NCBI GenBank assembly: GCA_963696385.1
Contig: CAVOKF010000001.1
Coordinates: forward strand, 348,024 to 412,023
DNA length: 64,000 nucleotides
Direction of reading: 5' to 3'
DNA from: an uncultured delta proteobacterium
GTDB taxonomy: Bacteria > Myxococcota_A > Polyangia > Polyangiales > Polyangiaceae
The notes under the pieces were generated by a model. That model was given only the letters and a program-made list of their open reading frames with translations, made no database searches and was not told where the DNA came from. A program made the translations under genes and the position numbers. Below, piece after piece: positions 16,290 to 62,124 of this stretch (positions within the stretch are counted from its first letter, which is position 1; each line of letters opens with the position of its first letter).

Positions 16290-16305
16290 GTCTGCTATGA
16301 TAGAC
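16290..16305. promoter_or_regulatory. GTCY-N8-RGAC box upstream of the beta-carbonic anhydrase
   Basis: GTCTGCTATGATAGAC. Confidence 0.65.
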
Positions 16306-16445
16306 AAGCGATGCTCGCTGTCGGTGCCCGTCTCGGACGCGCGCCGACGCGATCCGGTCGTGCGCTGCATTGCACTGCATTTGTCCCAATACCCTAAACG
16401 CGGGTCGGGGGCGTCTCCCTGGACCCAACGAACAGGAGGACGATC

Positions 16446-17027
16446 ATGAGCGATATCCGAGACCAGGTCCTGCACGCGAACGGTTCGTACGTCTCCATCT
16501 TCGGCGAAAAGGGCAAGCTGGCGCTGCCGCCCGCCCGGCGATTCGGCATCCTCACGTGCATGGACGGTCGAATCGATCCGGCAAAGCTCGCGGGCCTGAA
16601 GGAGGGCGACGCGCATGTCGTTCGAAACGCCGGCGGTCGCGCGAGCGACGACGCCATCCGATCCATCGTCATCTCCTACAAGCTATTGGGTACGCGCGAG
16701 TGGTTCGTCATTCACCACACCAATTGCGGTATGGAGCTCTTCACCGACGAGATCATTCGCGACCTTCTCGCAGCAAGCTTGAAGACCGCGGCCTACGACG
16801 GAAAGAAGTGGAAGGACAGCGGCGAGGGCGCGGGCTCGCGCCAAGGCGACTTCATCGACTGGCTCACGATCAAGAACCAGGCCGAGAGCGTCACGACCGA
16901 TGTCGAGCGGATCCGCAAGCATCCTCTCGTTCCACGCGAAATCCCCCTTTACGGCTTCGTGTATCAGGTCGAAAGCGGTCGCCTCGTCGAGGTGCCCGAA
17001 GCCACCGCGATCGGGCGTCCTTCCTGA
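16446..17027 (+). CDS. Beta-class carbonic anhydrase (clade D / COS-hydrolase-like)
   Basis: TCMDGR, RNAGGR, HHTNCGM; AGGAGG RBS. Confidence 0.92.
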
Positions 17028-17285
17028 CTCGCGGGCAACGCCGTGCTTCGGCCTGCCGGGTGCGGAGGGTTGCCGAACCCTGGGTTCGGTTGGGCTGCCG
17101 ACCTCCGCCCGACGCGGGCCGCGCTCCACCTCAGAATGTTTTCTGAACGTTGCCCTTGCAGCGGGAGTCTTCCGTCCGCAGCTTGCGGGTAGGCGCCGCA
17201 TGTGGACGGCGCGACTCGAGCCTCGGATGAATTCGCCCAGGAAGCGAAACGGCTTGGACCGCAACGATGAAACCATGAGGGGCTG

Positions 17286-17951
17286 TTGGTGTCGGAGCGC
17301 GTTCACGTTGGACCGGAGGCGATCGGCACCCCTCTGCGGGGCCCCGCGGCCATCACGTCATTCCTAAGTGCCAAAGCGAAGATGCGACCGTCTGCCACCG
17401 GACTCTCGAGCGCAAGCTCGCCGTCGTTGCTTGCAACGCCTCCGCTGCATGACCCTCCGAGGACCGGCGAAGAAGCCCCGAAGATTTTGGAAAATGACGT
17501 CGACCACGTGCTTGCCTCGTGGCGTCACATCGCCATAGCTTTTTGGCGCCGCGAGACGAGACCGGACGCGATCGAGCGACTGGGCCTGGCCCTGCGTGCC
17601 CTGCAAGACGCCACGGGTCACGCGCCGGGGCTCTTCATGGTGATCGGTGAAAGCGCTCCTCTGCCGTCCGCCGAGGCGCGCGCGCTGAGCGCAACGGTAC
17701 TCCGCAGGTTGCCGCTCGCGTTTTCCGTCGTGACCTTCGAGGGCGCCGGCTTCCGAGCCGCGGCGGTCCGCGCGGTCGTTGCGGGTATTTCGCTGCTTGC
17801 GAAGGTTCCGTATCCATACAAATCATTCGCCAGCATCGAAGATGCGTCGACGTGGGTCGCGATGCGCACACGGGCGGACGGCGAAGCCTCGGTGCCGGCG
17901 AAGGCTCTCATGGTCGCTGTACACGGCGCCCAGGGGGCCCGCGCAGGCTAA
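17286..17951 (+). CDS. Hypothetical protein (STAS/SEC14-like, myxobacterial type); start uncertain
   Basis: LPSAEARA...EGAGFRAAAVRAVVAG...F..IEDA..W. Confidence 0.6.
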   Translation: MVSERVHVGPEAIGTPLRGPAAITSFLSAKAKMRPSATGLSSASSPSLLATPPLHDPPRTGEEAPKILENDVDHVLASWRHIAIAFWRRETRPDAIERLGLALRALQDATGHAPGLFMVIGESAPLPSAEARALSATVLRRLPLAFSVVTFEGAGFRAAAVRAVVAGISLLAKVPYPYKSFASIEDASTWVAMRTRADGEASVPAKALMVAVHGAQGARAG

Positions 17952-18107
17952 CCGAAGCGGCCGAACCGTTGGGCCGGCGCCCTGCCGGGTCTCGCGCCGT
18001 GCCCAGTGCGAGCCCTCGCCTTGTATCTGACCTCGGCGCAGGGGTGAGTTCGACGCCTTTGCCGACGAGTCGATGCTTTGCGCGGACGACGTGCGCATCG
18101 AATGCCC

Positions 18108-18425
18108 GTCCCGATGGTCGATCCCCGTAGCATGCCCACACAAGCCGGTAGAACCTCGCCCCACACTTTGCGTTTCTTCTCGCTTCCCTCGCGCGACCCC
18201 GGCGTCGACCGGGCCCGGTACGCCGTCGACCTTGCGCTCCATTGCCTAGGCGGCATCGAGCCGGCAACGGAGATTCGTGACCTGGTCGCCCAGGCCGAAC
18301 TGCTGAGAGACGAAATCAGCAGTTGGACCGCACACCCACCGTCTTCTGAAACGCGGGAGGCCGTTATGTGCGGCGCTCTGTCGATTCAAGTCGCCGCGCT
18401 GAGCCTTCTCGGCAAAGGCCGCTGA
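18108..18425 (+). CDS. Small hypothetical protein; start uncertain
   Basis: Helical, protein-like 3' half (LRDEISSWTAHPPS..REAVM). Confidence 0.4.
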   Translation, partial: VPMVDPRSMPTQAGRTSPHTLRFFSLPSRDPGVDRARYAVDLALHCLGGIEPATEIRDLVAQAELLRDEISSWTAHPPSSETREAVMCGALSIQVAALSLLGKGR

Positions 18426-18571
18426 GCGCCGCTCGACGCCAACCAGGCCCGCAGCCGTACCGTGTCGCCGGGACACGTCGTTCGCGGCAAGAGATGGGGC
18501 AAGGCCGACGCCGACGGAACCGGGATCGGCCCGGGACGCCGGAGATCGACCTTGTCCGAGCGTCTGCGCGT

Positions 18572-20195
18572 TTACTGCGTTACGGCGGTGACGGGCGAAC
18601 GGCCGATCTCGTGGCCGAATCGGTCTTTCGCGACGACGCGAACGAATTTCGGATCGCCCTCGAGCGGGATGGCGGTGTCAAGACCGTCCCACGTCGAGGA
18701 TGCCAGCAGGCGAGGGTCGCCGGAGGCGCCGTCGCCGCTGCCGATGACGTCCCAGCGCGCGACTTCGGTCGCGCCGTTCCAGATCGCGTGCACGGTGGTC
18801 GTGCCGCCGGCCGCCTGGGCCGTGGCCGTCGGCAACGTGTCCGGCTTTCCGACCCACTCGAATCGATACGCGCGGTAGGAGTCGAAGCCCGCCGCGAGAC
18901 TCGCGTCGAAGAGGAGATTGCCTTCGAAGTCGAACTCGGAGAACCGCGGGACGGCGCCCCAGCCGACAAACGTGTCGCCGTTGTCCAGAGCCTGACTGCC
19001 GCCCTGAGAGGCGGCTGACAGATGGTCGGAATGGACGAACGATCGCACGAGTGTCGCCGTCTTGGTCGCGTCGTCTCGCCGCACCCAGATGACGCGCGAG
19101 TAGGGCAGAACGGGCGTACCGTTCGATTCGTTGTCGAAGATTCGAATCGTGTCCCGATCGACAGCAGTCGGGTTGTGCTGCCAGGCGAAGGCCACGTTCG
19201 GTCCGAGCGTGAAGTCGCTCGCTTTGCCGCCGAGACGCCAGATGACATCGCCCGTGTGTCGATTGAGCTTGTAAACCGTCCACGTGTGCCGCGACGAAAT
19301 CAGCAAGTTGCCGTCCTCGTCGGGGCTTACGGCGTTGATATGAAAGTAGTCGTACGGGGTCGTGGCCAAGGCAGGGACCGGTTCGTAGCTGTCGACCAGC
19401 GGCACGTGGTCGAGGCTGTGCCACTCGAACAGGACCTGTCCGCTCGCAATGTCGATTTCCTGGACGATCCCGTCGATGACCAGTCCGCTGGTCGAACCCC
19501 CGACCGACGACAGGTCACGGGTCACGGCGTCGTATACGGTGATGAGCGCCGTCCCCTCCGGCGTCAGTCTGAACTCGTGCTGGTCGGCGTCGAGCCCATG
19601 GCCAGCCGTGACCGTCGCGATGACGTTGTAGCGGTTATTGAGGATGTAATCGGTGGTCAGGCCCTGAGCGAGACCGCCGAACCCTTTGCCCTGCGACCAG
19701 GTGAGAACCGGCTCGCCCCGGTAGCTTTGAACCCGAAAGTCCGCGGCGGCCTGCCCGTTCGTGATGGGCAAAAACCATACAGGGCGGCCCTGGTCGTCGA
19801 GGATCTCAGGCCCCTCTTGACCGGCCGGTGCGGCCGGACTTCAGCGGCGCCTTTAAAGTGATCCACTTCCGGGCGTTCTCGTGATCCACGTCATGGTCCC
19901 AGCGCAACGCCGGCGGCGGCGGGCGGGCCCGCGTCCGCGCCGCCGCTCGGTATCGCCAGCGAGGCGGTACTGATCGGCGCAATGAAGATCAGCCCATGAG
20001 CCGCTCGGGGGCTGGACTGAAGGACCGTGATCGGCGGGGGATTGATCGGGACTGGAGCCGCGGTCGGGACCGGAGCCGCGGTGGACGACGCAGCGCTCGA
20101 AGAATCCGCGCGGGCCAACACGCTGAGCAGGCCGAGCGCAACAAGCCCTGCACCGCCAACGTGGGCATTCGAAACGACCTATGGAAAGACGTCAT
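18572..20195 (-). pseudogene. Arylsulfotransferase (ASST) family protein with disrupted 5' region
   Basis: DQHEF, DYFHINAV, AWQHNP, SQGGSQ motifs; signal region frameshifted; ~55-bp insert with stops at 19841-19893. Confidence 0.85.
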
Positions 20196-20294
20196 GACTG
20201 GGAACCTCCTCGTGGGAACGTTTCCCGAACCGCGACGCCGCAGCGTTCTTTTTGCGACGCCGTAGCTAGGAACAGTGGGGGCGGCGCCGGCGGG

Positions 20295-21689
20295 TCATGT
20301 CGATCCCAAGGACGAAGGCGATGCGCCGGAGTGGTGGACAGGGGCGCTGCGCGCCTTCGGCGTTTGAGAAAACTGATTGGCCGGACGCTTGAGGCCCAGG
20401 TGATCGCGCAACGTTTTTCCCTCGTACTCGGTGCGGAAAATGCCCCGCTTCTGCAGATGCGGAACGACCCGATTGATGAAGTGCTCCAGCGAGTCCGGGA
20501 TGAACGACGGCTTCATGTTGAAGCCGTCGGCACCCTCGTGGACGAACCAGTCTTCGAGCTGGTCGGCGATGTCCACCGGCGTTCCCACGACGATGCGGTG
20601 TCCCTGCACGGCCGAGAAGCGCAAAATGAGCTCCCGGATGCTGAGGTTTTCGCGTTGGGCAAGCGCGATGGCCTGGCGCCAACGGCCCTTTCCGTTAACC
20701 GGCTCGGGCAGATCGGTCGGCATGGGACCGTCCAGCGGATACTTGGAAACATCGACACCGAAGAATTGCTTCGATCCCGATACGTCGACGGCGTCCCGGT
20801 ACGATTCGTACTTCTCTTGCGCTTCCTGCCGCGACGAACCGATGTGGAAGAACAAGCCGGGAGTGACCTTGAGGTCGTCGGGGTCGCGACCGTATTTGGC
20901 CAGACGTCCCTTCACGTCGCGGTAAAACGATTGCGCCTCTTCGAGCGTTTGTGCAGCCGCGTAAATCACCTCGGCGTACTGGGCCGCGAACTCGCGTCCG
21001 GCATCGGAATTGCCGGCCTGAAAGAAAACCGGGTACCCCTGGATCGGCCGTGCGATATCGAGGAGCGCGTCCACCGAAAAGTGCTTGCCGTGGTGATGAA
21101 GGGGGTGAGAGCTCTTGGGGTCGAAGAAGATGCCCGTTTCCTTGTTTGGACGATCGAACGCTCCGTCGTCCCAGCTGTCCCACAGCTTCTTCGTCACGTC
21201 GACGAACTCTCCCGCGCGCTCGTAGCGCCCGTCGTGGTCGAGGCCGTCCCGGACTCCGAAGGATTGCGCCGCTCCTTCCGAGAGCGACGAGACGATGTTC
21301 CAGCCCGATCGGCCCGCCGTGAGGTGATCGAGCGAAGCGAGGCGCCGTGCCACGTTGTACGGCTCATTGAAATTGGTGTTGATGGTCGCCACGAGGCCGA
21401 TGCGATTCGTGATTCCGGCAAGAGCGGCCACCAAGGAGGTCGGTTCGAAATGGCCGCCGTGCGGCCTGCCGCCCACGCCACGGATCTCGGCGCCGCCCTG
21501 AGCCACGAAATCCGCGAAGAACGCGAAATCAAATTTTCCGCGCTCGAGCAGCTTGACGATGCTCGCCCACTCCTCGAATTGGGGATTGCCACCGGCGTGG
21601 ACCTCCGGCCGGCGCCAGGCGTGCCCGTGGGTACCAAATTGCTGCACGAAGACCGACAGTGACAGCTGACGCTTCTTCTTCTGGCTCAT
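20295..21689 (-). CDS. LLM flavin-dependent monooxygenase, NtaA/SnaA/DszA family
   Basis: ERGKFDFAFFAD, FEP, PYNVARRLASLDHLTAGRSGWNIVSS, QAGNS, TLRDHLGL. Confidence 0.93.
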   Translation of the reverse strand: MSQKKKRQLSLSVFVQQFGTHGHAWRRPEVHAGGNPQFEEWASIVKLLERGKFDFAFFADFVAQGGAEIRGVGGRPHGGHFEPTSLVAALAGITNRIGLVATINTNFNEPYNVARRLASLDHLTAGRSGWNIVSSLSEGAAQSFGVRDGLDHDGRYERAGEFVDVTKKLWDSWDDGAFDRPNKETGIFFDPKSSHPLHHHGKHFSVDALLDIARPIQGYPVFFQAGNSDAGREFAAQYAEVIYAAAQTLEEAQSFYRDVKGRLAKYGRDPDDLKVTPGLFFHIGSSRQEAQEKYESYRDAVDVSGSKQFFGVDVSKYPLDGPMPTDLPEPVNGKGRWRQAIALAQRENLSIRELILRFSAVQGHRIVVGTPVDIADQLEDWFVHEGADGFNMKPSFIPDSLEHFINRVVPHLQKRGIFRTEYEGKTLRDHLGLKRPANQFSQTPKARSAPVHHSGASPSSLGST

Positions 21690-22906: not shown

Positions 22907-22942
22907 TGACTTTTATTTGGACCCATGTCCATCATAAAAGAC
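22907..22942. promoter_or_regulatory. GTCY-N8-RGAC box with a partner site
   Basis: GTCCATCATAAAAGAC at 22927; TGACTTTTATTTGGAC at 22907. Confidence 0.7.
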
Positions 22943-27708: not shown

Positions 27709-27795
27709 GTCTCATTCAGAAGACTGATGCGAATCATGCCAAGCCACGGCGCATTGGGACGCATTTATTGCAGACCTATGTCTTTTGCTACAGAC
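27709..27795. promoter_or_regulatory. Two GTCY-N8-RGAC boxes in a divergent promoter
   Basis: GTCTCATTCAGAAGAC at 27709; GTCTTTTGCTACAGAC at 27780 with a half-site ending AGAC at 27760-27775. Confidence 0.7.
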
Positions 27796-36570: not shown

Positions 36571-36606
36571 CTTCCGAGTCAAGGACAATGGTCTACTATA
36601 GCAGAC
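36571..36606. promoter_or_regulatory. GTCY-N8-RGAC box upstream of tonB
   Basis: GTCTACTATAGCAGAC at 36591; half-site ending GGAC 20 bp earlier. Confidence 0.7.
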
Positions 36607-37768: not shown

Positions 37769-37784
37769 GTCCATCTTAGGAGAC
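37769..37784. promoter_or_regulatory. GTCY-N8-RGAC box
   Basis: GTCCATCTTAGGAGAC. Confidence 0.7.
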
Positions 37785-37870: not shown

Positions 37871-37886
37871 GTCTTTTATCGTAGAC
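37871..37886. promoter_or_regulatory. GTCY-N8-RGAC box
   Basis: GTCTTTTATCGTAGAC. Confidence 0.65.
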
Positions 37887-41436: not shown

Positions 41437-41452
41437 GTCTCCAATACCAGAC
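41437..41452. promoter_or_regulatory. GTCY-N8-RGAC box upstream of the LLM pair
   Basis: GTCTCCAATACCAGAC. Confidence 0.7.
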
Positions 41453-41473: not shown

Positions 41474-42343
41474 CTATGGACGTCGCGGGCCGGAGACGGC
41501 CGCGGGCCGGTCCGGGACTGCGCCACGCCGCCCGTCTTCGCCGCCGACGTGAAACTCATCGAGCAAGTCCTGTTTGATGTGCAGGAAGTCCGGGTGGGCG
41601 CGAGCGCGAGGGTAGGGCAGATCGACCTCTAGCCGCTTGCGGATACGGCCGGGTCTAGAATCCATCACCACCACCCGCTGACCGAGAAATACGGCCTCTT
41701 CGATGTCGTGCGTCACCAGAATCATCGTGACGTTCTCGGCGCGCCACAGCCGCTGCAGCTCACCCTGCAGATGCAAGCGCGTCAACGCGTCGAGCGCTCC
41801 GAACGGCTCATCGAGCAAGAGGATGTTCGGCTTGCTGACGATCGCACGCGCGATGGCCGCCCGCTGCGCCATGCCGCCGGAGAGCTGACGGGGGTAGGCG
41901 CGTTCGAACCCCTCCAACCCGACCAGGCGAATGTGCTCGGCCACCGTCTTGCGCTTGTCGTCCTGGGAGCCCGCCCGTGCGCTCAATCCGAGGGCGATGT
42001 TGTCCGCTACGGTCAGCCACGGGAAAAGTCGGTGCTCTTGAAAGACAATGCCGCGCTCGAGACCGGGCTCGCGGATCGGCCGGCCATCCAAGAGAATGGC
42101 GCCGTCGTAGTCGGCGTCGAGACCGACGATGAGCCGCAGCAGCGTCGACTTGCCGCAGCCGCTCGCGCCGACAATCGCCGTAAACGAGCCGGGAGGCGCC
42201 TCGAGGTCGATTCCCGCGAGCACCGGAAGAACGCGCCCCTCGAGACGATACGACTTGGACACACCGCGTACGCTGAGCGTGCCCGCCCCGTTGCGCATGG
42301 CGTTCGATTCGAAATCGATCGGCTGAGCGGCCATGCGGCTCAT
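41474..42343 (-). CDS. SsuB/TauB-like ABC ATP-binding protein
   Basis: GASGCGKS, FQEHRLFPW, LSGGM, LLDEPFGALD. Confidence 0.93.
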   Translation of the reverse strand: MSRMAAQPIDFESNAMRNGAGTLSVRGVSKSYRLEGRVLPVLAGIDLEAPPGSFTAIVGASGCGKSTLLRLIVGLDADYDGAILLDGRPIREPGLERGIVFQEHRLFPWLTVADNIALGLSARAGSQDDKRKTVAEHIRLVGLEGFERAYPRQLSGGMAQRAAIARAIVSKPNILLLDEPFGALDALTRLHLQGELQRLWRAENVTMILVTHDIEEAVFLGQRVVVMDSRPGRIRKRLEVDLPYPRARAHPDFLHIKQDLLDEFHVGGEDGRRGAVPDRPAAVSGPRRP

Positions 42344-42344
42344 C

Positions 42345-42474
42345 GTCTATCATGCCGGACACTGCCGGCCCAGCGGCGAGGCGATGGCCCGCGTGCCGGC
42401 AGGGTCCGCGCGAAGTCCCGTGGGGCCCGGCGCGTGATGTCCATCATCAAAGACTCCCGTCCTTGACTTCGTGA
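42345..42474. promoter_or_regulatory. Two GTCY-N8-RGAC boxes in a divergent promoter
   Basis: GTCTATCATGCCGGAC at 42345; GTCCATCATCAAAGAC at 42439; GTCC half-site at 42459. Confidence 0.7.
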
Positions 42475-44282: not shown

Positions 44283-44385
44283 GTCTCTTGTACAGGACTC
44301 ATCGATACTGGATTAAGCCGGGAAATACAACCCTAACGTCCGCCAAAAAGTCACTGTACCGTCGCTTATGTCTATTATTCTGGAC
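44283..44385. promoter_or_regulatory. Two GTCY-N8-RGAC boxes upstream of the TonB-dependent receptor
   Basis: GTCTCTTGTACAGGAC at 44283; GTCTATTATTCTGGAC at 44370. Confidence 0.72.
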
Positions 44386-48327: not shown

Positions 48328-49014
48328 TCAGTTGGCTCGGGCCGGCCTTGCGGCATCGTCGGACCTGACGTGAACCGCATATCGTTCGACGTAGTAGCTG
48401 GTTGGATTCTGCTCAATTTTCACTGCGGGAAGCTTTGCGATCTGCTCGCTGTAGCGCTTCAGACGATCGATCGGACGGGCGAGAACGCTTCCGCGAAGCT
48501 GCTCGAGCGCCGGCCACCGCTCGAACCAGGGGTAAAGCGCGAAGTCCACGAGGCTCGGCGCCGGACCGAAGAAGTACGGGCCGTCGGCAGACGCTTTTGC
48601 GAAGCCCTCGCGATCGAGAAATTCGAGCGCCGTGCGAAACTCGCTCCGCGCCGCGTCTCGCAGTGCTTCGGTGGATCCACGCAAGAGCGCGCCGAAGGCC
48701 GTCACGAAACGGGTGTTCGCCCAATCGATCCACAGCCGTGCCACGGCTCGGCGGGCCGGACCGTCCGGCAGAAGGGGAGGGCTCGGAAAGACCTCGTCGA
48801 GGTACTCGTTGATGACAACAGATTCCCAGATGCGGTTGCCGTCATGTTCGATAGCCGGCACCTTGCCATAGCCCGATACGCTCGAAAACCAAGCGGGCTT
48901 GTTCCTCAGGTCGATTTCGCGAAGCTCGAAGTCCACACCCTTATGGGAGAGCACCAACCTGGTTCGATGCGCGAAGGGACACGCACGTGCACTGAACAAT
49001 GTCAACTTAGCCAT
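48328..49014 (-). CDS. Cys-type (omega-like) glutathione S-transferase
   Basis: ACPFAHR, GKVPAI, WESVVINEYLDE, SLVDFALYPWFER. Confidence 0.9.
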   Translation of the reverse strand: MAKLTLFSARACPFAHRTRLVLSHKGVDFELREIDLRNKPAWFSSVSGYGKVPAIEHDGNRIWESVVINEYLDEVFPSPPLLPDGPARRAVARLWIDWANTRFVTAFGALLRGSTEALRDAARSEFRTALEFLDREGFAKASADGPYFFGPAPSLVDFALYPWFERWPALEQLRGSVLARPIDRLKRYSEQIAKLPAVKIEQNPTSYYVERYAVHVRSDDAARPARAN

Positions 49015-49148: not shown

Positions 49149-49164
49149 GTCCCGTTTACAAGAC
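49149..49164. promoter_or_regulatory. GTCY-N8-RGAC box upstream of the omega-like GST
   Basis: GTCCCGTTTACAAGAC. Confidence 0.6.
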
Positions 49165-49563
49165 CCATTGTGACCGGTCACGCGTACCCTGGGTTCCCGG
49201 GTATCCACCGCCCTTACGCCTTCGAGCACGAGGGTCTTTTCAACCAATCAGCCCATTTGGAGCGGACCGAAGGCGTGGAGCATGCGGACCCAACATTCGG
49301 CGACCGCGTTGTCAATCTCCTGCGCCGCCCGAGCTGTCGTGCCGTACGAACGCGTGCGGACCGACCGCCGGGCAACCCGCGCCACCGTCCGTTCCACCGC
49401 AATCGCTTCCGCTCGAGTCGCCTGCCGTGCCGTCATGGCCAACCTCCTGTTTGCGCGGTCCGAGGGAGGGCGCCGGCACCCCGCCAACCCCGGGCGCCCC
49501 GCGAGCCTGGCCCAGAAACGTCTCTGATTCAAGACATTGGGGAGAAGCGAAGTCGCCGGCGAA

Positions 49564-50821
49564 TTACCTCGAGACGACCCGCTCCGAGCTCCGATCGGGC
49601 GCGTGGCCAACCTTCGATGCCAAACCGAGCATGTGGCCGAGCTTGGACTGCTTCGCCGACAGATAGGCGATGTTTTCGGCGTTGGGGGCCGTGACGAGCG
49701 CCACGCGTTCGACGATTCGCAACGGGTAGCCTTCCAGGGCCGCGAATTTAGCGGGGTTGTTGCTCATGAGTCGGATGGTCGTCAGTCCGAGCGACGTGAG
49801 AATCTGCGCTCCGACGTCGTATCGACGCGAGTCGAATCGGAAGCCCGAGTTCGAGGTTGGCTTCGACCGTGTCACGGCCCTCGTCCTGCAATTGGTATGC
49901 GTGAAGCTTGTTGATCAGGCCGATGCCGCGTCCCTCGTGACCTCGCAGGTAGACGACGACTCCGCGACCGCACTCGGCCACGTGCGCCAGCGCCGCATCG
50001 AGTTGGGCACCGCAGTCGCACCGGATCGAGCCGAAGAGGTCCCCCGTCAAGCATTCGGAGTGAACGCGTACCAATACGTTCTCTTTGCCCCTCACGTCGC
50101 CGCGGATGAGCACGACGTGCTCGCCGCCGTCGATGCAGTCTCGAAACACGCGCACGTTGAACGGCCCATGGCGCGTCGGCAATCGGGCCTCGGCAACGGC
50201 CTCGACCCGCGACTCGGTCCGGCGGCGGTAGGCCACGAGGTCGTCGATGCGGATCAGCGCGAGACGGTGCTCCACCGCAAAAGCCGACAGGGCCGCGGGC
50301 CGCATCATCGTCCCGTCGTCGTGGGTGAGCTCGCACAGGGCTCCAACCGGCGTCAGGCCGGCGAGACGCGCCAGATCCGATGCCGCTTCCGTATGTCCGC
50401 GCCGGCGCAACACACCGCCGTCGCGCACCCGAAGAGGAAACACGTGCCCCGGTCGAACGAAGTCGTGTGCCGTGCTCTCGGGACTGCCGAGCGCATGAAT
50501 GGTGGTCGCGCGGTCTGCCGCACAAATTCCGGTCGTTGTTCCACGCCGCGCATCCACCGAGACTGTGAACGCCGTACCGTGCGCCTCCTGCCCCTGGGGC
50601 ACCATGAGCGGCAGGTTGAGCATGTCGCAGCGCTCACCGGGCAGCGCAACGCACAGCACGCCGCTCGTGTATCGAAGGACGAATCGGATGACTTCCGGCG
50701 TCGCGGTCTCGGCGGCGACGATGAGATCGCCTTCGTTCTCACGCTCCGCATCGTCGAGGACCACGACAGGCTCGCCGCGCTGGGTCCTCCGGATAGCCTC
50801 TTCAACCTTCGAATACGGCAT
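49564..50821 (-). CDS. ribBA: Bifunctional DHBP synthase / GTP cyclohydrolase II (+1 frameshift at 49834-49838, probably an artefact)
   Basis: [37 protein letters not shown] / [12 protein letters not shown]...MSNNP. Confidence 0.93.
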
Positions 50822-50844
50822 GTTCGACGTGCCTCGCCGCAGGT

Positions 50845-50880
50845 GTCTACCATAATGGAACACTGTCTACAATTCGGGGA
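50845..50880. promoter_or_regulatory. Tandem degenerate boxes between ribBA and the regulator
   Basis: GTCTACCATAATGGAA at 50845; GTCTACAATTCGGGGA at 50865. Confidence 0.6.
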
Positions 50881-51150
50881 GGGACGTAGCCCTCGCCGGC
50901 CTCCGCGACGACCGACCGAGCCGACCGCGACTCGGCCGTCGACGGCCGGCTGCCGGACAATGCGGCCGTGCCTCACGGCCAAGGCTCAAGGGAGCGATGA
51001 CCCCGACCCCGACTACCCGACCCCGACCCACCTCCGGACTCTCGAGGCGGAAAGCACGCCGAGCGTGGCCGATGCGAGGGCCCCGCGGGCGAGACCCCCG
51101 TCCACCAATTGTTTGCGGGTCGGTTGGTTCTCGCATTACATTTGACGTTA

Positions 51151-51840
51151 ATGGGCCCGCCGGCACCCGGCCGCAAATCCAGCCCTCGAGTCGCTTCGCC
51201 CTCTCCGGATCGGACGCCCCCGTCCCCGAACAAGCCCGCCGGTCGCCCCAAAGTCGACGGGCTCGGCGACGACGTGGGCGCGGCCGTGCTGGCCCGGCGC
51301 GTCGCAGACAGTCTGCGCGTCCTGCGAAAGGAGCGCGGATTGTCGTTGGACGAGCTCGCGCTGGCGAGCGGTGTGAGCCGCGCCGCTCTGTCGCAGATCG
51401 AGACGTGCCAATCGAATCCGAGCTTGTCGGTGCTCTGGAAGATCGCGGTCGGACTGAAGGTGCCCTTCAATACCCTGCTCGGACCGGATGAGTCGGAGAC
51501 CGCTCGACTCTTGAAGTCCGGAGATTCGACGCCGCTCCGTACGAGCGACGGGCGCGTCGAGAGCCGACTGCTGTCGCCTTCGGGAGCCTCTGCTCGGCTG
51601 GAGATCTACGAACTTCGCTTTCACGCCAAGGGTATTCTTCACAGCGAACCCCATGGACTGGGTGCGCACGAGACCGTCATCTTGCTCACCGGTGCGCTCC
51701 GGGTCAGCGTGCGCAACCAGAACTACGATTTGACGCCGGGCGACACGCTTTTCTTCGAGGCGAACGCGGCGCACTCGTACGAAAATCGGAGCTCGCACGA
51801 GAGTCGCTGTCTCGATGTCATCGGCTACGGGCTGACCTAA
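51151..51840 (+). CDS. XRE-HTH + cupin transcriptional regulator (SutR/PuuR-like architecture)
   Basis: GLSLDELALASGVSRAALSQIE...NPSL; SEPH..G..E; GDTLFF...HSYEN. Confidence 0.92.
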   Translation: MGPPAPGRKSSPRVASPSPDRTPPSPNKPAGRPKVDGLGDDVGAAVLARRVADSLRVLRKERGLSLDELALASGVSRAALSQIETCQSNPSLSVLWKIAVGLKVPFNTLLGPDESETARLLKSGDSTPLRTSDGRVESRLLSPSGASARLEIYELRFHAKGILHSEPHGLGAHETVILLTGALRVSVRNQNYDLTPGDTLFFEANAAHSYENRSSHESRCLDVIGYGLT

Positions 51841-51939
51841 CTCGTCGAGGAGCCCGATCGGGACCTCGTCGGCTGCTGCCGCCCGAGGCGTCCCCATTCG
51901 GGCCTGCCGCGTGCCGGCCCGCGGCGGGTGCGGACCCGA

Positions 51940-53727
51940 TCAGACCACGTAGTACAAGTCCGACCGCAGCCCGTCGGCAGGCGCCGTCAAACCGTAGCAG
52001 TGGGGGCACGCTCGGACGGCTGCAGGCGTCACGTGCCCGTAGGCGAACCGCACCGCCTCGATGGTCGAGGAACCGGGCCGCAGCGGGTCGCTCGCGAACA
52101 CGCGCTCGGCCGGCAGCCACCGATCGAAGCGAAGGTTCTGCATCGCGCGTGCAATGTCGTCGCGAACACCGCTCAGAAGCACGAGCACCTGGTCGCGGTC
52201 CATCTGTCGAAGAAAGTGCTCGAGCTTCTCCATGCAGACCAGGTCAGGGTTGCGAGTCCTGCGCAGGCGCAGCACGACGACCCTCGCGCCGGAGGTGGTG
52301 GCGGCGGCGGCCACCTCTTCGAAGAACCCGTCAAGCTCCGGCGCCGCGCCGAAGAAGAGCTCCCCCTCGACATCGTAGATCAGAACCGCCCGGCAGGGCG
52401 GGTCGGAGGGAAGGCGCCGCCGGATGACCCGATCGGCACCCAGCCACAGCTCGGTGGTTCGAAGACGAGAGGCTCGCGGAAGGAACAGAAGAATGGAGAG
52501 GCCGACGCCAATCAGGATCGAGAACTCGATGCTCACGAGCAACGCGGCCAGCGCGGTCACGAGCACCAGCCCGGCATCGTAGCGGGACGCGCGGAGTGCG
52601 TATCCGAGTCGTTTCCAGTCGATGAGCCGAGCGGCCGTGACGAGCAAGAGGCCCGCCAAGGCCGCTTTCGGAACGTATCGGGCCAGGGGGGCCGCCACCA
52701 CGACCACGAAGGCCACGGCGAGCGAAGCGAAGATGCCGGACGCGCGCGTCGCGGCCCCAGCCTGGTAGTTGATCGCCGATCGTGTCAGCGAGCCAGAGCC
52801 GGGCAAGCTCTGAAAGAAGCCACCGCCGAGATTCGCCAGGCCTTCGGCCAGGCACTGCCGATTGAAGTCAATCGTCTGGCCCGAGTGGTACGCGATGGAC
52901 TTGGCGATCGCCATGGCCTCCAGCAGCCCGAGAAGGGCGATCGCCAGCGCACTGCCCGACATTTCGCGCACCCAGCCGAACTTGATCTCCGGAATATGCG
53001 GCCAGGGCAGACCGCTCGGCACACTGCCGACGACCGACACCCGCGCCTCATGCCCTGGCGTGGGAACCGACCAGCCGAGCGCAGAGGCAGCCGTCGCCGC
53101 CACGACGAGTGCGACGAACATGTCGAGCTGCGGCAGCCGATGCTTTCGCACGACCTTCCGAAGCAAGACGACCAACACGACGGTGCCGGAGGCCACGGCG
53201 AGCGATCGAACGTTGACGGGCCCACCTGCCGTCAGCGTCAGGTAGAGTCGATGGATCACCAGCTTGTGGCCCCCGCCCCGGTCCGGCATCCCGACGACAT
53301 TTCCCACCTGGCCCAGGGCCACGAGCAAACCGGCTCCGGCCATGAATCCGATCACCACGGATTCGGAAATATACCGGGTCAGATCGCCCAGACGAAAGAC
53401 GGCAATCAAGATCTGTAGGGACCCCGCCATGATACCGAGCAAAAACATCGCCTCGGTCGCCTCGGGGCGCGCTTCGGGGTCGAAGAAGGCAAGGGCGCTG
53501 AAGACGACGAGCGAAATCGCGTTGGTGGGACCATTGATGAGGTGAGACGACGAGCCGAATACCGACGCGATCGCGGTAACGACGATGGCGGAATACAACC
53601 CGTAGCGCGGGTCGACGCCGGCGATGAGAGCGTAGGCCATGGCCTGCGGGAGCGAGATCGCCGCGACCGTGATCCCGGCCAAGCCATCGCGACGGAGTTC
53701 GTCGTATCCGTATGCAGCCCGGGTCAT
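51940..53727 (-). CDS. sulP: SulP/SLC26 sulfate permease with STAS domain
   Basis: AGITVAAISLPQAMAYA, GLYSA, GSLTRSA, GELFFG. Confidence 0.93.
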   Translation of the reverse strand: MTRAAYGYDELRRDGLAGITVAAISLPQAMAYALIAGVDPRYGLYSAIVVTAIASVFGSSSHLINGPTNAISLVVFSALAFFDPEARPEATEAMFLLGIMAGSLQILIAVFRLGDLTRYISESVVIGFMAGAGLLVALGQVGNVVGMPDRGGGHKLVIHRLYLTLTAGGPVNVRSLAVASGTVVLVVLLRKVVRKHRLPQLDMFVALVVAATAASALGWSVPTPGHEARVSVVGSVPSGLPWPHIPEIKFGWVREMSGSALAIALLGLLEAMAIAKSIAYHSGQTIDFNRQCLAEGLANLGGGFFQSLPGSGSLTRSAINYQAGAATRASGIFASLAVAFVVVVAAPLARYVPKAALAGLLLVTAARLIDWKRLGYALRASRYDAGLVLVTALAALLVSIEFSILIGVGLSILLFLPRASRLRTTELWLGADRVIRRRLPSDPPCRAVLIYDVEGELFFGAAPELDGFFEEVAAAATTSGARVVVLRLRRTRNPDLVCMEKLEHFLRQMDRDQVLVLLSGVRDDIARAMQNLRFDRWLPAERVFASDPLRPGSSTIEAVRFAYGHVTPAAVRACPHCYGLTAPADGLRSDLYYVV

Positions 53728-54875
53728 TTCGCCCTGGGCTTGCAGACGACATCGAAGATCCCGTTTTCGGAGAAGAATCGATCCTCGGCGTCGGCCCAAT
53801 GCTTTGCCACGAGTGTAATGGGGAAGAGGTCGACGGGAGGGAATCGGTCGCCGTGTTTCTTGAACACCTCGACACTCACGGGCCGGTACCCGTTCCGAGC
53901 GATGATCTCTTGCCCTTCGTCGGTGTAGAGAAACGATAGATAGGCCTCGGCGAGCGCCCGCGTGCCTTTGCGCTCGACGTTGGCGTCCACCCACGCGACG
54001 TACGGCTCTGCGCGAATGCTCACGGGGGGAACCACGACGTCGAGCTCGCCCTTGGACGCTTCGGCCTCGCGCCAAGCCTCGTTTTCCCACGTCACTTGAA
54101 CGTCGCCCACCCCTTCTTGTGCAAACGTTCGCGTCGCGTCGCGCGCACCGTCGTCGAGAGCGGCGACGTGATCGCACAGATCGGAGACGTACGCGCGTGC
54201 CGCATCGTCGTCGCCGCCGCGGCGAAGCACCGCCCCCCACGCCGCGAGTAAGCTCAGCCGCCCGTTTCCGGACGTCTTCGGGTTCGGCGTCACCACCGAA
54301 ACGCCCCGGCGAACAAGGTCCGGCCAATCATGAATGGCCGCCGGATTGCCCTTGTGAACCACGAACACAATCGTCGACGTATACGGCACAGAATTGTTGG
54401 GAAGCCGCCCGGCCCAGCCGGGCGCGATCCATCCCCGCTTGCGAAGCGCGTCGATGTCCGAGTACATCGCCAGCGTCACGACGTCCGCAGCAAGACCGTC
54501 GGCGACCGCGCGTGCTTGACGCGACGAGCCCCCGTGGGACTGTCGAATCTCGACCATCTTGCCCGTGCGGTGTCGGTAAGCGAGAGCGAACCGCTCGTTC
54601 AGATCGCGATACAGCTCGCGCGTCGGGTCGTAGGACACGTTGAGAAATGCGCCACCGACATCCTGAGCCCCGACGTTTTTTCCAAACACCACGGCAATCG
54701 ACACCGCCACGGCCAAGAGCGCCGCGACGTTGAGCCAGCGGTTCGGCCACGGACTGCCCGGCCGGAGCGACCGGATCTCGGAGTGAGGGTTCCCAGGTTG
54801 CGCACCACCCTGCGGGGATCTCACGGGTCGATTGGGGAACCATCGGGCCGGAAAACGCCGTTTCACGCGAAGCAT
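53724..54875 (-). CDS. sbp: Sulfate/thiosulfate-binding protein (start uncertain)
   Basis: LNVSYDPTRELY, QSHGGSSRQAR, PNPKTSG, TWENEA. Confidence 0.93.
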   Translation of the reverse strand: MLRVKRRFPARWFPNRPVRSPQGGAQPGNPHSEIRSLRPGSPWPNRWLNVAALLAVAVSIAVVFGKNVGAQDVGGAFLNVSYDPTRELYRDLNERFALAYRHRTGKMVEIRQSHGGSSRQARAVADGLAADVVTLAMYSDIDALRKRGWIAPGWAGRLPNNSVPYTSTIVFVVHKGNPAAIHDWPDLVRRGVSVVTPNPKTSGNGRLSLLAAWGAVLRRGGDDDAARAYVSDLCDHVAALDDGARDATRTFAQEGVGDVQVTWENEAWREAEASKGELDVVVPPVSIRAEPYVAWVDANVERKGTRALAEAYLSFLYTDEGQEIIARNGYRPVSVEVFKKHGDRFPPVDLFPITLVAKHWADAEDRFFSENGIFDVVCKPRAK

Positions 54876-54909
54876 CTATCATTACGGACGCGTGTCTTTC
54901 AATAGGAGA
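54874..54909. promoter_or_regulatory. Tandem degenerate boxes between sbp and cysK
   Basis: ATCTATCATTACGGAC at 54874; GTCTTTCAATAGGAGA at 54894. Confidence 0.55.
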
Positions 54910-55206
54910 GACCCGCGCCGGACGTTGGACAGCGCGCGCCCCAACCCGGGGGCCACACGAGCGACGCGCGAATGATTTGCGCGGCCGCGCCGGAGATGCG
55001 TGGGATTCGCGGGGGGAAGACCGGCCGATCCCCACGCGATCGCCCTCGAGGTCGCCCAAAACCCGAACGACGCGGGCGGGGCCACGGCGGCGCGGGGGAC
55101 GACGTTGGAGCGAAGGCGTGTCTCGTGCTACGAACGCCCGACGCGGGCTCGGCCGGTTGTCCCGATCGAGGACCACCCCGGCCGCACGGTCTCGCGGAAG
55201 GATGTC

Positions 55207-56184
55207 ATGGCCCACTGGTTCGAAGACAACGCTCAGTCCATCGGCCGCACGCCGCTCGTGCGCATCAATCACCTGCAAGACCGCCCGCGCGCCCGGATCC
55301 TCGCCAAGATCGAGGGACGCAACCCCGCGTATTCCGTCAAGTGCCGCCTCGGAGCGGCCATGGTGTGGGACGCCGAGAAGCGGGGTGTCCTCGGACCTGG
55401 CAAGGAGATCATCGAGCCGACCAGCGGCAACACCGGAATCGCGCTCGCGTTCGTCGCCGCCGCTCGCGGATACCCCCTCACGCTGACCATGCCCGAGACC
55501 ATGAGCATCGAGCGGCGCAAGCTCTTGGCTGCGTACGGCGCCAAACTCGTCCTGACCGAGGGGCCCAAAGGGATGAGCGGCGCCGTCGCGAAGTCCGAAG
55601 AGATCGCCGCTTCGAATCCGGCGCGCTACGTGCTTTTGCAGCAATTCAAGAATCCGGCGAACCCGGCGATTCATGAAACGACCACGGGACCGGAAATTTG
55701 GGAAGACACGGGAGGCGACGTCGACATCCTGGTCTCCGGGGTGGGCACCGGCGGCACGATCACGGGCGTTTCGCGCTACTTCGAGAAGACACGCGGAAAG
55801 CCCCTTCTCTCAGTGGCCGTCGAGCCCACGAACAGTCCCGTCATCGCGCAGAAGCGCGCGGGCCAGAACCTGGTACCCGGACCGCACAAGATTCAGGGAA
55901 TCGGCGCTGGCTTCATTCCCGACGTGCTGGACCTTTCGCTTGTCGATCAGGTGGAGGCCGTGACGAACGAGGAGGCGATCGACTACGCGCGCCGGCTCAC
56001 GCGCCGGGAGGGGATCCTGTCCGGGATATCGAGCGGGGCGGCGGTCGCCGTCGCGGTGCGGCTCGCCGCGCGGGCCGAACACGAAGGAAAAACCATCGTC
56101 GTCGTGCTGCCGGATTCGGGCGAGCGTTACCTCAGCACGGTCCTCTTCGAGGGGATCTACGACGCGCAGGGAATCGCGACTTGA
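55207..56184 (+). CDS. cysK: Cysteine synthase A
   Basis: [38 protein letters not shown]. Confidence 0.96.
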
Positions 56185-57131
56185 GCGAGAGAACGACAAC
56201 GACGGAGTCCCGACCCGGCGCCCGCCCCGCGACCTGGACGCTCGGCGCGGTGGTGGAGGCCATCTGCCGGGCGAACGAGGGCAGCCGGACGGGCACGTTC
56301 GGACGGCGGCCGCTCCCCTCGCGATCGGCGGTCGCCGAGCTCGTCTCGGGGCTCCGAGCGGCGCTGTTTCCCTGGCATTTCGGCCCATCGGACCTGTCCG
56401 GCGAAGGGCTGGTCTATTACGTCGGTCGGACTCTCGACGCGTCGTTGGCCGTGCTCGAGGATCAGGTTCGGGTGGGCCTGCTGTTCGAGGGCCAGCACGG
56501 CGAGGCCGTCAGTGATGCGGATGCCCCTCGCGCGACGGCGATCGTGCACGCGTTCGCGTCCCGGCTTCCCGCATTGCGGGAGATGCTCGAGAGCGATGCG
56601 CGCGCCGCTTACGAAGGGGACCCGGCCGCCACAAGCGCGGACGAGACGAATTTCTCCTATGCGGGCATGACGGCCATCACCTACCACAGGATCGCCCACG
56701 AACTTCACCGGCTCGGGGTCCCGCTGATTCCGCGCATGATCTCCGAGCTCGCCCACTCCGTCACCGGCATCGACATCCATCCGGGAGCCGCGATCGGTCC
56801 GCGGTTTTTCATCGACCACGGTACCGGCGTGGTGATCGGGGAAACCTGCATCATCGGCGAGCATGTCCGCCTCTACCAGGGCGTCACGCTCGGAGCCAAA
56901 AGCTTTCCGACCGACGACCATGGGAACCCGGTCAAGGGCATCCCGCGCCACCCCATCGTCGAAGACGACGTCATCGTCTACGCGGGAGCGACCGTCCTGG
57001 GTCGGATCACGGTCGGACGTGGCTCGAGCGTCGGGGGCAACGTCTGGCTCACGCATAGCATCGCGCCCGGCACGCACGTCAGCCAGGCCCAGCTGCGTCA
57101 TGAGGTCTTCAACGACGGGGCGGGAATCTAG
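56181..57131 (+). CDS. cysE: Serine O-acetyltransferase (CysE/EpsC type)
   Basis: [41 protein letters not shown] overlap with cysK. Confidence 0.93.
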
Positions 57132-57309
57132 TGACCGGGCACCTGCTGCATGCGCTGGGGCACAAGGCAGAGGCCGCGCACGCGTAGGAGCTTGCCATCG
57201 GCCTGTGCGAGGATCCCGAGACACGGGATTTCCTGCAACGCCAGGCGCGGTAGGCGGCTCAGTGCGCAAAGAGCGCAGACGCCGAGCGACGCGATCGACG
57301 TGCGCCCGG

Positions 57310-58836: not shown

Positions 58837-59009
58837 GGAAACGGCCGTCGGCGCTTCGAAGCCGACGTGGCGAGTAGCCGGTCGAAAGCGTATCGATCAA
58901 CGAAGAGCCGCGGAAACCGCGGCGGTCACATATAACTCGTTAGGGGCTTCCGCCGTCGCTGTAATGGCGAACCGATTTGAAGGCTTCCGTTGTCACCGAG
59001 CCGCGAACC

Positions 59010-60102: not shown

Positions 60103-60148
60103 GGCTGCGCGTCGCCGCCGACAGGGCGGAACCCGTCGACCGGCCGTC

Positions 60149-61219
60149 TCAGACTCGGAGGTCCTGACTTTCCGGCACAGGCCCTCTCGACGCCGCGCGC
60201 GCCCGCAGTCGCTCCTGCGCCGCCCGGAGGGGTCGATCGTCGATCCATGCATCGTAATCAAAGTCGCGATCGAGAAAACCATAGGTGAGCTGAAAGTCCT
60301 TCTGCTGCCGGAAAAGCGCGACGCGCTCGCTCGATAGGTCCGGCGCAAGCGCAAGATGAAAGCCGCCGCGATAGGCCTCTTCGACCCCCTGCGAACTGGC
60401 GCGCGTCTCACCTTGCAGAACCTTGTGAACTCCTTCGACGTTGGTCTTGGCCCATTCGGCAGCACGAAGAGTCTGGTAGAGGAAGCGCACAAGCAGGTCG
60501 AAGTGGTCGGCCAGAAGGCTCTCGTGCACGGTGATGGGGCGCGGCGTCCCGTTGTTCACGCGAAAGCGGCGTTCCGGAAGCCGATCGAGGTCGATCCCGA
60601 CGACGGCCCCATGGCGGCGTGCGGCATCCGCCGCCGAAGCGCCCTTTACGTAGACCGCGTCGACCTCGCCCTTGATGAGCGGATCGAGCCCCTCCCAGAT
60701 CCCGCCGAGGCCGTCGCGCCGATTGTCGGAAGCACCGCGCCCGACCTCGACGAGTCGAACGTCGTCGAGCGTCAGGCCGACCGACGCGAGCGCGCCCTTG
60801 TAGCCCGCGAGGCTCATGCCTCGCGCAATGCTGCGACCACGGCGATTTTCGGCGAGGTCGGAGGCACGAAAGGCAGGTAGCGCGAGTCGCTTGCCTTTCA
60901 AGTGCTCCGGCGAGGTTATGGCTTCGCCGGGCCGCACGAGGATCGACTGCCACTCGTCAATCCATGTCAGGCCGACGAGCCGCGACGGGGCTCCTTGAGC
61001 CTTCGCGGGGATAGCAAGAAGATTGCCGCCCTCGCGAATCAGCGTTGGCAGCTCGTGGTCGTAATGATGCCGGGCGAGCTCGCCGCCTGCATCTTGCAAG
61101 GTTCGAACCCGAATCCCGTCTGGTTTGAACTCGTCATCGAGCCAGCCAAGCTTGTAGGCCAGGCCTGTGGCCGTGGGAACGGGGCAGCGGGTGAACCATA
61201 GGGTGTCCAACGCGGTCAT
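60149..61219 (-). CDS. DszB-like protein 3
   Basis: LWFTRCPVPTA, HYDH, IREGGN; paralog of 21777-22859; no signal peptide. Confidence 0.82.
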   Translation of the reverse strand: MTALDTLWFTRCPVPTATGLAYKLGWLDDEFKPDGIRVRTLQDAGGELARHHYDHELPTLIREGGNLLAIPAKAQGAPSRLVGLTWIDEWQSILVRPGEAITSPEHLKGKRLALPAFRASDLAENRRGRSIARGMSLAGYKGALASVGLTLDDVRLVEVGRGASDNRRDGLGGIWEGLDPLIKGEVDAVYVKGASAADAARRHGAVVGIDLDRLPERRFRVNNGTPRPITVHESLLADHFDLLVRFLYQTLRAAEWAKTNVEGVHKVLQGETRASSQGVEEAYRGGFHLALAPDLSSERVALFRQQKDFQLTYGFLDRDFDYDAWIDDRPLRAAQERLRARAASRGPVPESQDLRV

Positions 61220-61314
61220 GGAGTTTTCTCCGATCGAGAAACCTTGGAGGTCGTTTCGTGGTCACGGCCCGATCTTCGGATCCGGACCCAGGCTCAAAGC
61301 GTCGACGCTCTCGG

Positions 61315-62037
61315 TCAATGGCCGGCATGCGGCAAGAAGCCCAAGGCGCGCGCCTGCTCGGTCAACCCGCTCATCTTGAACTGCTGCGCCAGGACCCCGG
61401 GACCGTAGTCGCGCGACCCACCAAGGCTCTCGGCGAGGAGCTGAAGGCGCGCGCCTTCTTCGAGAATCAGAATGAACTCGGCGGTCTTGCGCAGACCGCC
61501 CTTGCCCCAAACCGTCGCGCCTCCGTTCGCCTCCAGAATGGCCGGAGTGTGCGGATCGATCTGAAGCCGATCGAGAATGAAGTCCTGCTCGGCCTGGCGT
61601 CGATCCAAGTAGACCGGTATCTCGCGGCTGAGAAGATACCGCTGCACAGGTACGTAGCGAATGGGCAAGGTCCGCTGGGTTTGCGCCCACGCACCCAAAC
61701 ACGGCGAATGGACGTGCGAAACGGTCGTGATGTCGGGGTGCTGCTCGAGGATTTTCGAGTAGCGGCCCTGGCCGCCCCCACCCGCCTCGCCGAGATAGGC
61801 GGTGCCGTCGAAGCCAAATACGCGGGGCACGAGCGCCTTCCCGCGCTCGAAGGGGCCCGGGTCATGAATCGCGACAAACTTGCTCTCCCCCGGGATGCGC
61901 TCGACGAACCCCACGGTCCCATTGGCGGTGATCGTCCCCGTCTCGCGAAAGACTCGAAACGCGAGCTCGGCCTCCTCAGTGGCCCTCTTGACGAACGCGA
62001 CGGCTTTCGGACCGAGACTGTTCGCTGCTCGACTCAT
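61315..62037 (-). CDS. Class II aldolase/adducin-like protein
   Basis: HPDITTVSHVHSP, AILEANGGATVWG, LEEGA. Confidence 0.8.
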   Translation of the reverse strand: MSRAANSLGPKAVAFVKRATEEAELAFRVFRETGTITANGTVGFVERIPGESKFVAIHDPGPFERGKALVPRVFGFDGTAYLGEAGGGGQGRYSKILEQHPDITTVSHVHSPCLGAWAQTQRTLPIRYVPVQRYLLSREIPVYLDRRQAEQDFILDRLQIDPHTPAILEANGGATVWGKGGLRKTAEFILILEEGARLQLLAESLGGSRDYGPGVLAQQFKMSGLTEQARALGFLPHAGH

Positions 62038-62088
62038 GTTCTCACCTTTCGCTTCGGTCGCGCGGCGCGCGCCCTTGCCCGTCGCCAC

Positions 62089-62124
62089 GTCTATCATACA
62101 GGACACGCATGCGCAAGGTCGGAC
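62089..62124. promoter_or_regulatory. GTCY-N8-RGAC box with partner half-site
   Basis: GTCTATCATACAGGAC at 62089; GGAC half-site ending 62124. Confidence 0.7.

Follow-up and report, generated by a model that had tools for sequence, protein, structure and literature searches.

A palindrome ahead of sulfur-scavenging genes in an uncultured Polyangiaceae bacterium, a likely operator of SutR-type XRE-cupin repressors

A palindrome in an organosulfur island

This study concerns a 64,000-nucleotide stretch of DNA, hereafter the window, from an uncultured delta proteobacterium of the Polyangiaceae (assembly GCA_963696385.1, contig CAVOKF010000001.1, positions 348,024 to 412,023), in which the palindrome GTCY-N8-RGAC recurs and which also carries the gene of an XRE-cupin regulator (51151-51840, plus strand), called copy A below. 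The window lies at the end of contig C1, in a 6.94 Mb genome that is 96% complete and has a G+C content of about 65%. The segment from 16290 to 62124 is an organosulfur-scavenging island and a predicted regulon. From 16.3 kb onwards the island encodes an arylsulfotransferase, three luciferase-like monooxygenases, SsuABC-like importers, TonB/ExbBD, and a TonB-dependent receptor, and further on lie two glutathione S-transferase (GST) genes, ribBA, sbp, sulP, cysK, and cysE. Its proteins contain 0.60% cysteine and 1.10% methionine, versus 1.04% and 1.57% genome-wide. Gene boundaries were taken from a purpose-built hexamer gene caller, some of whose starts are wrong.

The 16-base palindrome has 17 exact matches in the window, versus a mean of 5.94 (standard deviation 2.46, maximum 14) in 100 dinucleotide shuffles, none of which reached 17. 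When the spacer was varied from 0 to 20, enrichment was seen at 8 only, with 17 matches in the window versus 2-9 at the other lengths. Genome-wide, intergenic matches number 123 at spacer 8 versus 45-84 at other spacers. The genome-wide total of coding and intergenic matches shows no enrichment (398 versus 319-557). The motif is real. All 14 exact sites listed in the initial annotation lie where it placed them, as do its two one-mismatch sites at 50845 and 54874, and a rescan adds exact matches at 12922, 23014, and 49520. Sites were scored with a symmetric weight matrix trained on 34 examples from this genome, half of them from the window (17) and half picked elsewhere (17), by which 12922 and 23014 are low-scoring (7.3 and 8.2).

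The predicted operators are spread along the island. The one at 16290-16305 (score 21.6) lies 140 bp before a beta-carbonic-anhydrase-family gene (16446-17027), and that at 22927-22942 (23.4; weak partner at 22907-22922) separates an operon for an SsuA-like binding protein and an NtaA-DmoA monooxygenase from a divergent dienelactone hydrolase gene. Two weaker operators, 27709-27724 (13.2) and 27780-27795 (13.6; partner at 27760-27775), share the divergent region between an ATP-binding cassette (ABC) exporter pair and an SsuABC-like importer. The site at 36591-36606 (22.0; partner at 36571-36586) stands before tonB-exbB-exbD and ABC genes, and two more, 37769-37784 (16.6) and 37871-37886 (22.1), lie upstream of a binding-protein-like open reading frame (ORF) that gave no Pfam hit (36654-37661). 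Two luciferase-like (SsuD-type) monooxygenases and a binding protein, encoded on the minus strand from 41364 down to 37971, are preceded by 41437-41452 (17.7). The ABC ATPase gene 41474-42334 has a site 11 bp before it (42345-42360; 17.8), and another (42439-42454; 19.8) lies before divergent ABC permeases, its partner at 42459-42474 being the weakest of all (-10.7). The TonB-dependent receptor gene (44476-46923) has two operators upstream, 44283-44298 (17.4) and 44370-44385 (22.4), and a GST gene (48328-48954) has one at 49149-49164 (17.3). The operator at 49520-49535, missing from the first list, scores 17.9. As the initial annotation stated, a tandem site occupies the divergent upstream region of the regulator: the pair 50845 and 50865 (50845-50880) has the ribBA start 24 bp away and the regulator start at a distance of about 290 bp, and it is also present at a paralogous locus on contig C5. 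A second pair (54874-54909), made of the one-mismatch site 54874 and its partner 54894, lies between divergent sbp-sulP and cysK-cysE. Finally, 62089-62124 comprises an operator (21.9) and a weak partner at 62109 before a class II aldolase-like gene and a binding protein gene, in a block repeated on C2 and C8.

The palindrome also occurs upstream of sulfur genes on four contigs besides that of the window, and about 35 strong sites lie ahead of sulfur operons on five contigs. Outside the window, strong sites lie ahead of a second cysK/sbp-cysTWA locus, YeeE/YedE transporters, two sigma-54 activators, an arylsulfotransferase, a paralogue of the regulator (paralogue C), and a gene that we take from its sequence to be rhodanese-like, behind which a family 2A encapsulin and its cysteine desulfurase are encoded. 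With a matrix score of at least 13, the genome yields 70 hits, 47 of them intergenic, in sulfur clusters on C1, C2, C5, C7, and C8.

The initial annotation had further proposed partner sites 20 bp away, suited to cooperative binding of two dimers. The seven partners in the window are exactly 20 bp off and weak, with matrix scores from -10.7 to 3.4 of which one exceeds 0, and six of the seven fall within the top 3% of the intergenic background. A mismatch-count test on the window's 18 sites alone was unconvincing, with 7 partners at offset 20 versus up to 6 elsewhere. When 165 distinct sites from this genome and from the fetched loci were pooled, partner flanks were found at offset 20 in 21 of 330 cases and at offset 21 in 7, the other offsets between 15 and 35 having 0-4 each. 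The spacing is thus real, but the partner is degenerate and a minority feature, with 26 tandem pairs among the 165 sites. Since it accompanies about one site in six, on either side (7 downstream and 6 upstream at oriented sites), cooperative tandem binding would be at most a modifier.

The XRE-cupin regulator and the SutR operator

Copy A is an intact ORF, as first annotated, and encodes 229 residues. After a disordered N-terminal segment of 40 residues it matches PF01381 (HTH_3, E 1e-13) and PF07883 (cupin, E 7e-10), which is the XRE-cupin architecture, and it carries Arg77 in the recognition helix and the invariant residues His168, Glu174, and His208 in the cupin. The predicted structure has five helices followed by a beta barrel (mean pLDDT, the predicted local distance difference test, of 80) and confirms no more than the two-domain fold. 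That this is the only regulator of the island holds for the ORFs scanned with Pfam (56 + 14), among which no other was found, a scan that was neither six-frame nor directed at all regulator families.

The same architecture, a helix-turn-helix of the XRE type joined to a cupin, is present in E. coli SutR (YdcN, b1434), as had been pointed out in the initial annotation. SutR shares 34% identity with copy A over 180 residues (E 5e-31), and its cupin residues His117, Glu123, and His157 are invariant in 9 sequences. It has been linked to sulfur utilisation (Yamamoto 2015, as cited in PMC10781874, PMC8464067, and PMC4797297). The gap between ydcO and sutR contains two 16-bp palindromes, 32 bp apart, of the same shape as the myxobacterial one: they have the same outer bases and an A/T centre, and stand upstream of the regulator's own gene. 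The chromatin immunoprecipitation-exonuclease (ChIP-exo) data for SutR list 62 peaks, of which the sutR peak has a signal of 1345 and the next one 141 (PMC8464067, Dataset S4). The centre of the sutR peak lies 0.5 bp from the centre of the first palindrome, after an offset correction of the coordinates between genome versions. At seven weaker peaks, the best 16-mer is at most 1.5 bp from the peak centre in five, with low scores (-2.7 to 9.8).

Relatives of SutR allowed the comparison to be extended. Among 80 metagenome loci, 79 were analysed and collapsed to 64 distinct upstream regions, all from proteins with Lys in the recognition helix, and 62 of the 64 contain a SutR-type box. Position 3 of this box is G or A in 119 of 124 half-sites, whereas at the myxobacterial loci with Arg in the helix, with position 3 left free, it is C in 116 of 130 half-sites (65 sites). 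The base pair tracks the helix residue, with Lys34 in SutR and G/A at operator position 3, against Arg77 in copy A and C at that position. The same dyad, with a spacing of 12 bp, ranks within the top three of both the myxobacterial and the SutR-relative sets. Nothing else argues as strongly for binding of the motif by this family as its resemblance to the SutR box, although the evidence is correlative and amounts to one evolutionary contrast.

Copy A shows the features of the SutR/YdcN (VC1968-like) subfamily, namely full-length similarity, the cupin metal residues, and a SutR-type 16-bp operator, but is not a strict orthologue of SutR as judged by the helix residue and the gene neighbourhood. 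The systems differ in further respects. The SutR ChIP-exo signal is mostly at one local site, unlike the strong sites spread over the myxobacterial genome; SutR boxes pair at 27-40 bp, mostly 31-32, whereas myxobacterial sites pair at 20-21 bp; and the neighbour of SutR is ydcO, whereas the myxobacterial homologues adjoin sulfur-assimilation genes. The best match of the family profile in the PDB is Vibrio cholerae VC1968 (1Y9Q, E 9e-35, full length), a dimer with zinc (PMC2684688) whose cupin pocket holds D-methionine (PMC7901475), which is a hint only. VC1968 has a Lys-type helix, unlike copy A, and the accessible text of PMC2684688 and PMC7901475 describes neither operator nor regulon for it.

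Linkage across genomes and competing explanations

The initial annotation took the window's XRE-cupin protein as the candidate regulator. The family is well supported, but copy A is one of four full-length XRE-cupins of the genome, the others being a 99% identical copy on C5, paralogue B on C3 (621272-621892; 57% identity), and paralogue C on C5 (535308-536015; 38%). Family matches were found in 29 of 30 genomes of the genus, 35 of 36 of the family, and 3 of 24 of other families in the order; these tallies, like those given below for cysD/cysH neighbours, strict matches, and sites upstream of the regulator genes, include two unpublished genomes, on which alone no claim rests. The matches in the genus are of the B type, often within a few kb of cysD or cysH. 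In a quick tree, paralogue C and a wide A-group form separate clades (support 99 each), and A falls among proteins of other genera and not with B; some duplicate rows and a long-branch root lead us to draw no donor or order of events. Genomes that hold only B still have strong sites before sulfur genes, indicating that copy A is not the sole or original regulator. Paralogue B is likely the ancestral regulator and the window gene an extra island copy.

These observations also lend some weight to a different explanation, which we nevertheless regard as unlikely: that B (or C) alone runs the regulon, with copy A a passenger or confined to a local role with another effector, as the divergence of its cupin domain might suggest. 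Against it, the recognition-helix residues of A and B do not differ. The strict pattern is matched 19, 26, and 31 times (palindromic sites being counted twice) in the three genomes whose A copies are closest, more than in any others: at most 12 times in the remaining family members and 0-4 times in 21 genomes without the XRE-cupin family, with 0-3 for a reversed control. In addition, RNA-library contigs (4 of 14 runs, from peat) cover parts of the A gene and of several targets, although such contigs indicate presence only.

That the motif accompanies the family was seen in the 80 loci around regulator homologues, the best 80 of 519. With a score of at least 13, they contain 79 sites, of which 77 are intergenic (intergenic DNA making up 13.5%), and 46 of the 80 loci have a site; thirty permuted matrices gave 1-29 sites on the same loci. 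A matrix-free count of dyads places four nested pieces of the same palindrome in its top five. The genes behind these sites encode O-acetylhomoserine/O-acetylserine (OAH/OAS) sulfhydrylase, CysC, TauD, a DszC-like protein, RibBA, SsuA, CysS, and DUF2325. Upstream of the regulator's own gene, a site scoring at least 8 is present for 18 of the 32 B genes, 11 of the 14 C genes, and 32 of the 80 genes in the A-group, versus 3.4% of 1500 random upstream windows, and many of those of the B genes stand at one fixed offset. As read from N-terminal sequences, strict matches in B-only genomes precede sulfur genes, whereas those in regulator-free genomes are mostly coding or before unrelated genes. In a survey of the phylum, 26 of 301 Myxococcota genomes matched the regulator, with 11 candidates scored per genome, so that absences are not informative; outside the order, co-occurrence of regulator and motif rests on 20 distant loci.

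Several observations were made at these loci in their own right. In distant Myxococcota (loci L283, L284, and L286), the regulator gene stands with operators between aspartate kinase/homoserine dehydrogenase and OAH sulfhydrylase-metA, an arrangement which suggests that it may control methionine synthesis there. Genes for DUF2325 repeatedly follow the operator or cysK in many genomes (for example L038 8517-8837 and L193 5488-5835), with a site at 7 of 13 loci, making DUF2325 a candidate sulfur-starvation protein. At L031 (7025-11016), paralogue C, the rhodanese-like gene, a family 2A encapsulin, and its cargo cysteine desulfurase are clustered with two operators, and the rhodanese-like gene looks leaderless in several genomes. 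We also rejected the notion of a paralogue C that makes no use of the motif, since 3 of 9 C-type genes in distant genomes have sites. One phage-repressor-like protein with a peptidase S24 domain and a similar Arg-Ala start of the helix has a perfect operator 35 bp upstream (L101, 4586-5356), a single case.

Sites upstream of XRE-cupin genes fit the status of target as well as autoregulation, and another repressor (Rrf2/CymR-like, LysR, GntR, or of some further kind) might bind the palindrome, the XRE-cupin genes being mere members of the regulon. We consider this improbable. CysB is the master sulfur regulator of E. coli, and CysB/Cbl (LysR) and CymR (Rrf2), of protein families unrelated to XRE-cupins, control a similar set of targets: sulfate and sulfonate uptake, desulfonation, and cysteine synthesis. 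No CysB/Cbl hit was obtained at E 1e-40 among the 6 LysR proteins scanned, from 6 of the 8 LysR loci of this 96% complete genome, two loci being outside the scan. An Rrf2 gene is near the regulator in 13 of the 80 loci, but this sulfur-linked Rrf2 has no match in our genome and one in 30 genus genomes at E 1e-15; the one Rrf2 protein of this genome above the cut-off is not beside sulfur genes. The families checked were LysR and Rrf2. Against any such repressor also speak the same-shaped box bound in vivo by SutR and the position of strict matches in genomes without the family. The initial proposal of an XRE-cupin sulfur regulon rather than a CysB/Cbl one is well supported by the motif's association with the family across Myxococcota and its SutR-box geometry, alongside the lack of a CysB/Cbl hit at the 6 LysR loci scanned.

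The core of the motif offers a further point, absent from the first reading. Of the 94 sites that adjoin a single gene start, 39 have a -10 pattern at positions 7-12 oriented toward the gene and 15 have one oriented away from it (binomial p = 0.0015, although kin are not independent). The start triplet of a -35 element occurs at spacers 16-17 at 22 sites, and at each other spacer from 12 to 23 at 0-7. Eleven sites, one of them from a regulator-free genome, end 2-3 bp ahead of the called start codon, the layout of leaderless promoters. Some pooled sites were fetched with a pattern fixing part of the core, which biases its content, not its direction relative to the gene. The core thus resembles a sigma-70 -10 box and probably is one.

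The arrangement predicted here is comparable to that reported for Pseudomonas aeruginosa XRE-cupins, whose palindromic sites lie in core promoters and beside their own genes and which, as dimers, repress by occlusion (PMC7901475). ErfA, PsdR, PauR, PA1359, and others share the architecture and the own-gene site with the myxobacterial proteins, but mostly have one or two local targets, PauR (29 genes) excepted, whereas the myxobacterial site is genome-wide; that source, in the text available, assigns a sulfur regulon to none of them, PA2312 having given no data. The local action typical of XRE-cupins was accordingly not found here, given the 70 matrix hits. Could the XRE-cupin bind the sites and activate, or act dually, instead of plainly occluding the promoter? 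RefSeq names SutR a dual regulator, and the -35 start, clear at just 22 of 94 oriented sites, makes many promoters look weak. Such a mode nonetheless appears very unlikely, as polymerase would find little space at a site whose centre is the -10 hexamer, and all P. aeruginosa XRE-cupins with determined regulons repress (PMC7901475). Hardly credible is a motif that merely marks promoters, as an extended -10 or an alternative sigma element, and that no repressor binds: the core is indeed oriented like a -10 box, but the flanks form an exact inverted repeat with more information than the core, the same symmetry marks the known protein-binding site of SutR, and promoter elements are not normally dyad-symmetric.

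The palindrome is thus probably the operator of SutR/YdcN-family XRE-cupins, which we predict to act as genome-wide sulfur-starvation repressors occluding sigma-70 -10 boxes. Several results weigh against this interpretation. Matrix hit counts in this genome are circular because the matrix was trained on the same genome's sites; helix invariance in the 80 loci arises by construction, as they were fetched with a pattern including the helix; the kin among the sampled genomes are not independent; and the correspondence of Lys or Arg with the base pair is a single evolutionary contrast. The B gene of this genome has no upstream site (best score 1.0), 34 of the 80 homologue loci have none, and in distant loci the A/B-type genes have sites in just 5 of 9 cases and the C-type genes in 3 of 9. 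Seven regulator-bearing genomes in the genus and five more distant ones have no strict match. A test anchored on cysD/cysH found a site of at least 12 in 3 of 24 regulator-bearing versus 0 of 17 regulator-free genomes, a difference that is not significant (Fisher p = 0.25). The link to copy A is also confounded, since site counts climb with the number of sulfur genes.

Under the occlusion model, a dimer would use its recognition helices to read both outer half-sites, which are separated by one helical turn, and Arg in this helix (Lys in SutR) may select the base pair at position 3/14. Bound on the -10 box, the dimer would block RNA polymerase, as reported for the P. aeruginosa proteins (PMC7901475). 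A second dimer 20-21 bp away could strengthen repression at about one in six sites. Binding would be switched by a small molecule in the metal pocket of the cupin; the zinc and D-methionine held by 1Y9Q, the closest solved relative, make an amino-acid-like effector likely. By the family precedent of release on ligand, an inducer that accumulates in sulfur shortage, for example O-acetylserine, is the most likely effector, with cysteine or methionine as co-repressor nearly as likely. Paralogue B would be the ancestral regulator, A and its C5 twin, with the helix residues of B, would probably serve the same sites, and paralogue C would be both a target and, probably, a binder.

Surroundings of the island and meaning of the predicted regulon

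Left of the island, a mobile region (6400-16300) contains HicB-like, Fic, DDE transposase, excisionase-like, and relaxase-fragment genes, and Rfam identifies there a group II intron domain and a type II hammerhead ribozyme (8876-8951 and 9928-9996); an Rfam search of the island itself found nothing. A paralogous module with regulator, cysK, cysE, and arylsulfotransferase (49564-57134 and 18046-20338) recurs at 87-96% identity on C5 (626750-633685), without most of ribBA. In the window, ribBA (49564-50821) is split by a frameshift near 49835, where one RNA contig is without a base, and indels relative to RNA contigs also occur at 47553, 47653, 48284, 48855, and 49066; these differences may be assembly errors or strain differences. 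The block of aldolase-like, binding-protein, and Rieske genes is present in three copies of more than 99% identity at contig ends (59017-64000 in the window, C2 758-5709, and C8 882463-886522), and is either a recent repeat or an assembly overlap. Directly before the shortened Rieske oxygenase alpha gene lies the end of a multi-copy element (58869-58980; copies on C4, C6, C7, and C8), which has RNA contigs of very high depth with loose ends and no Rfam hit.

The protein family, the operator shape, and the mode of repression are already known; the variant box, the global scale, and the lineage are new. Our literature search, which covered few subscription papers, found no description of myxobacterial sulfur-shortage sensing or of an XRE-cupin sulfur regulon, for which candidate proteins and an exact site are now named. 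The close resemblance to the SutR site of a palindrome found before dozens of sulfur-scavenging genes, in this bacterium and in related ones, makes a SutR-type protein the likely master repressor of sulfur-starvation genes in this lineage. With somewhat less assurance than for the operator itself, we propose a broader picture in which the Arg-helix branch of SutR proteins would take the place of CysB and CymR in Polyangiaceae and in scattered other Myxococcota, as master repressor under sulfur starvation. It would head a cascade to which sigma-54 activators, a second XRE-cupin, and a sulfur store in a family 2A encapsulin belong. One Lys-to-Arg change would have retuned the operator, a proposed recognition rule of one residue and one base pair. 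If this holds, repressors described so far as acting mostly locally can govern a nutrient regulon on a global scale, and new sulfur-scavenging genes could be read off by their operator, among them those for DUF2325, a haloperoxidase-like secreted protein, a class II aldolase-like protein, and a Rieske oxygenase. The site would thereby provide functional leads for unknown genes that recurrently stand behind it, DUF2325 being one example.

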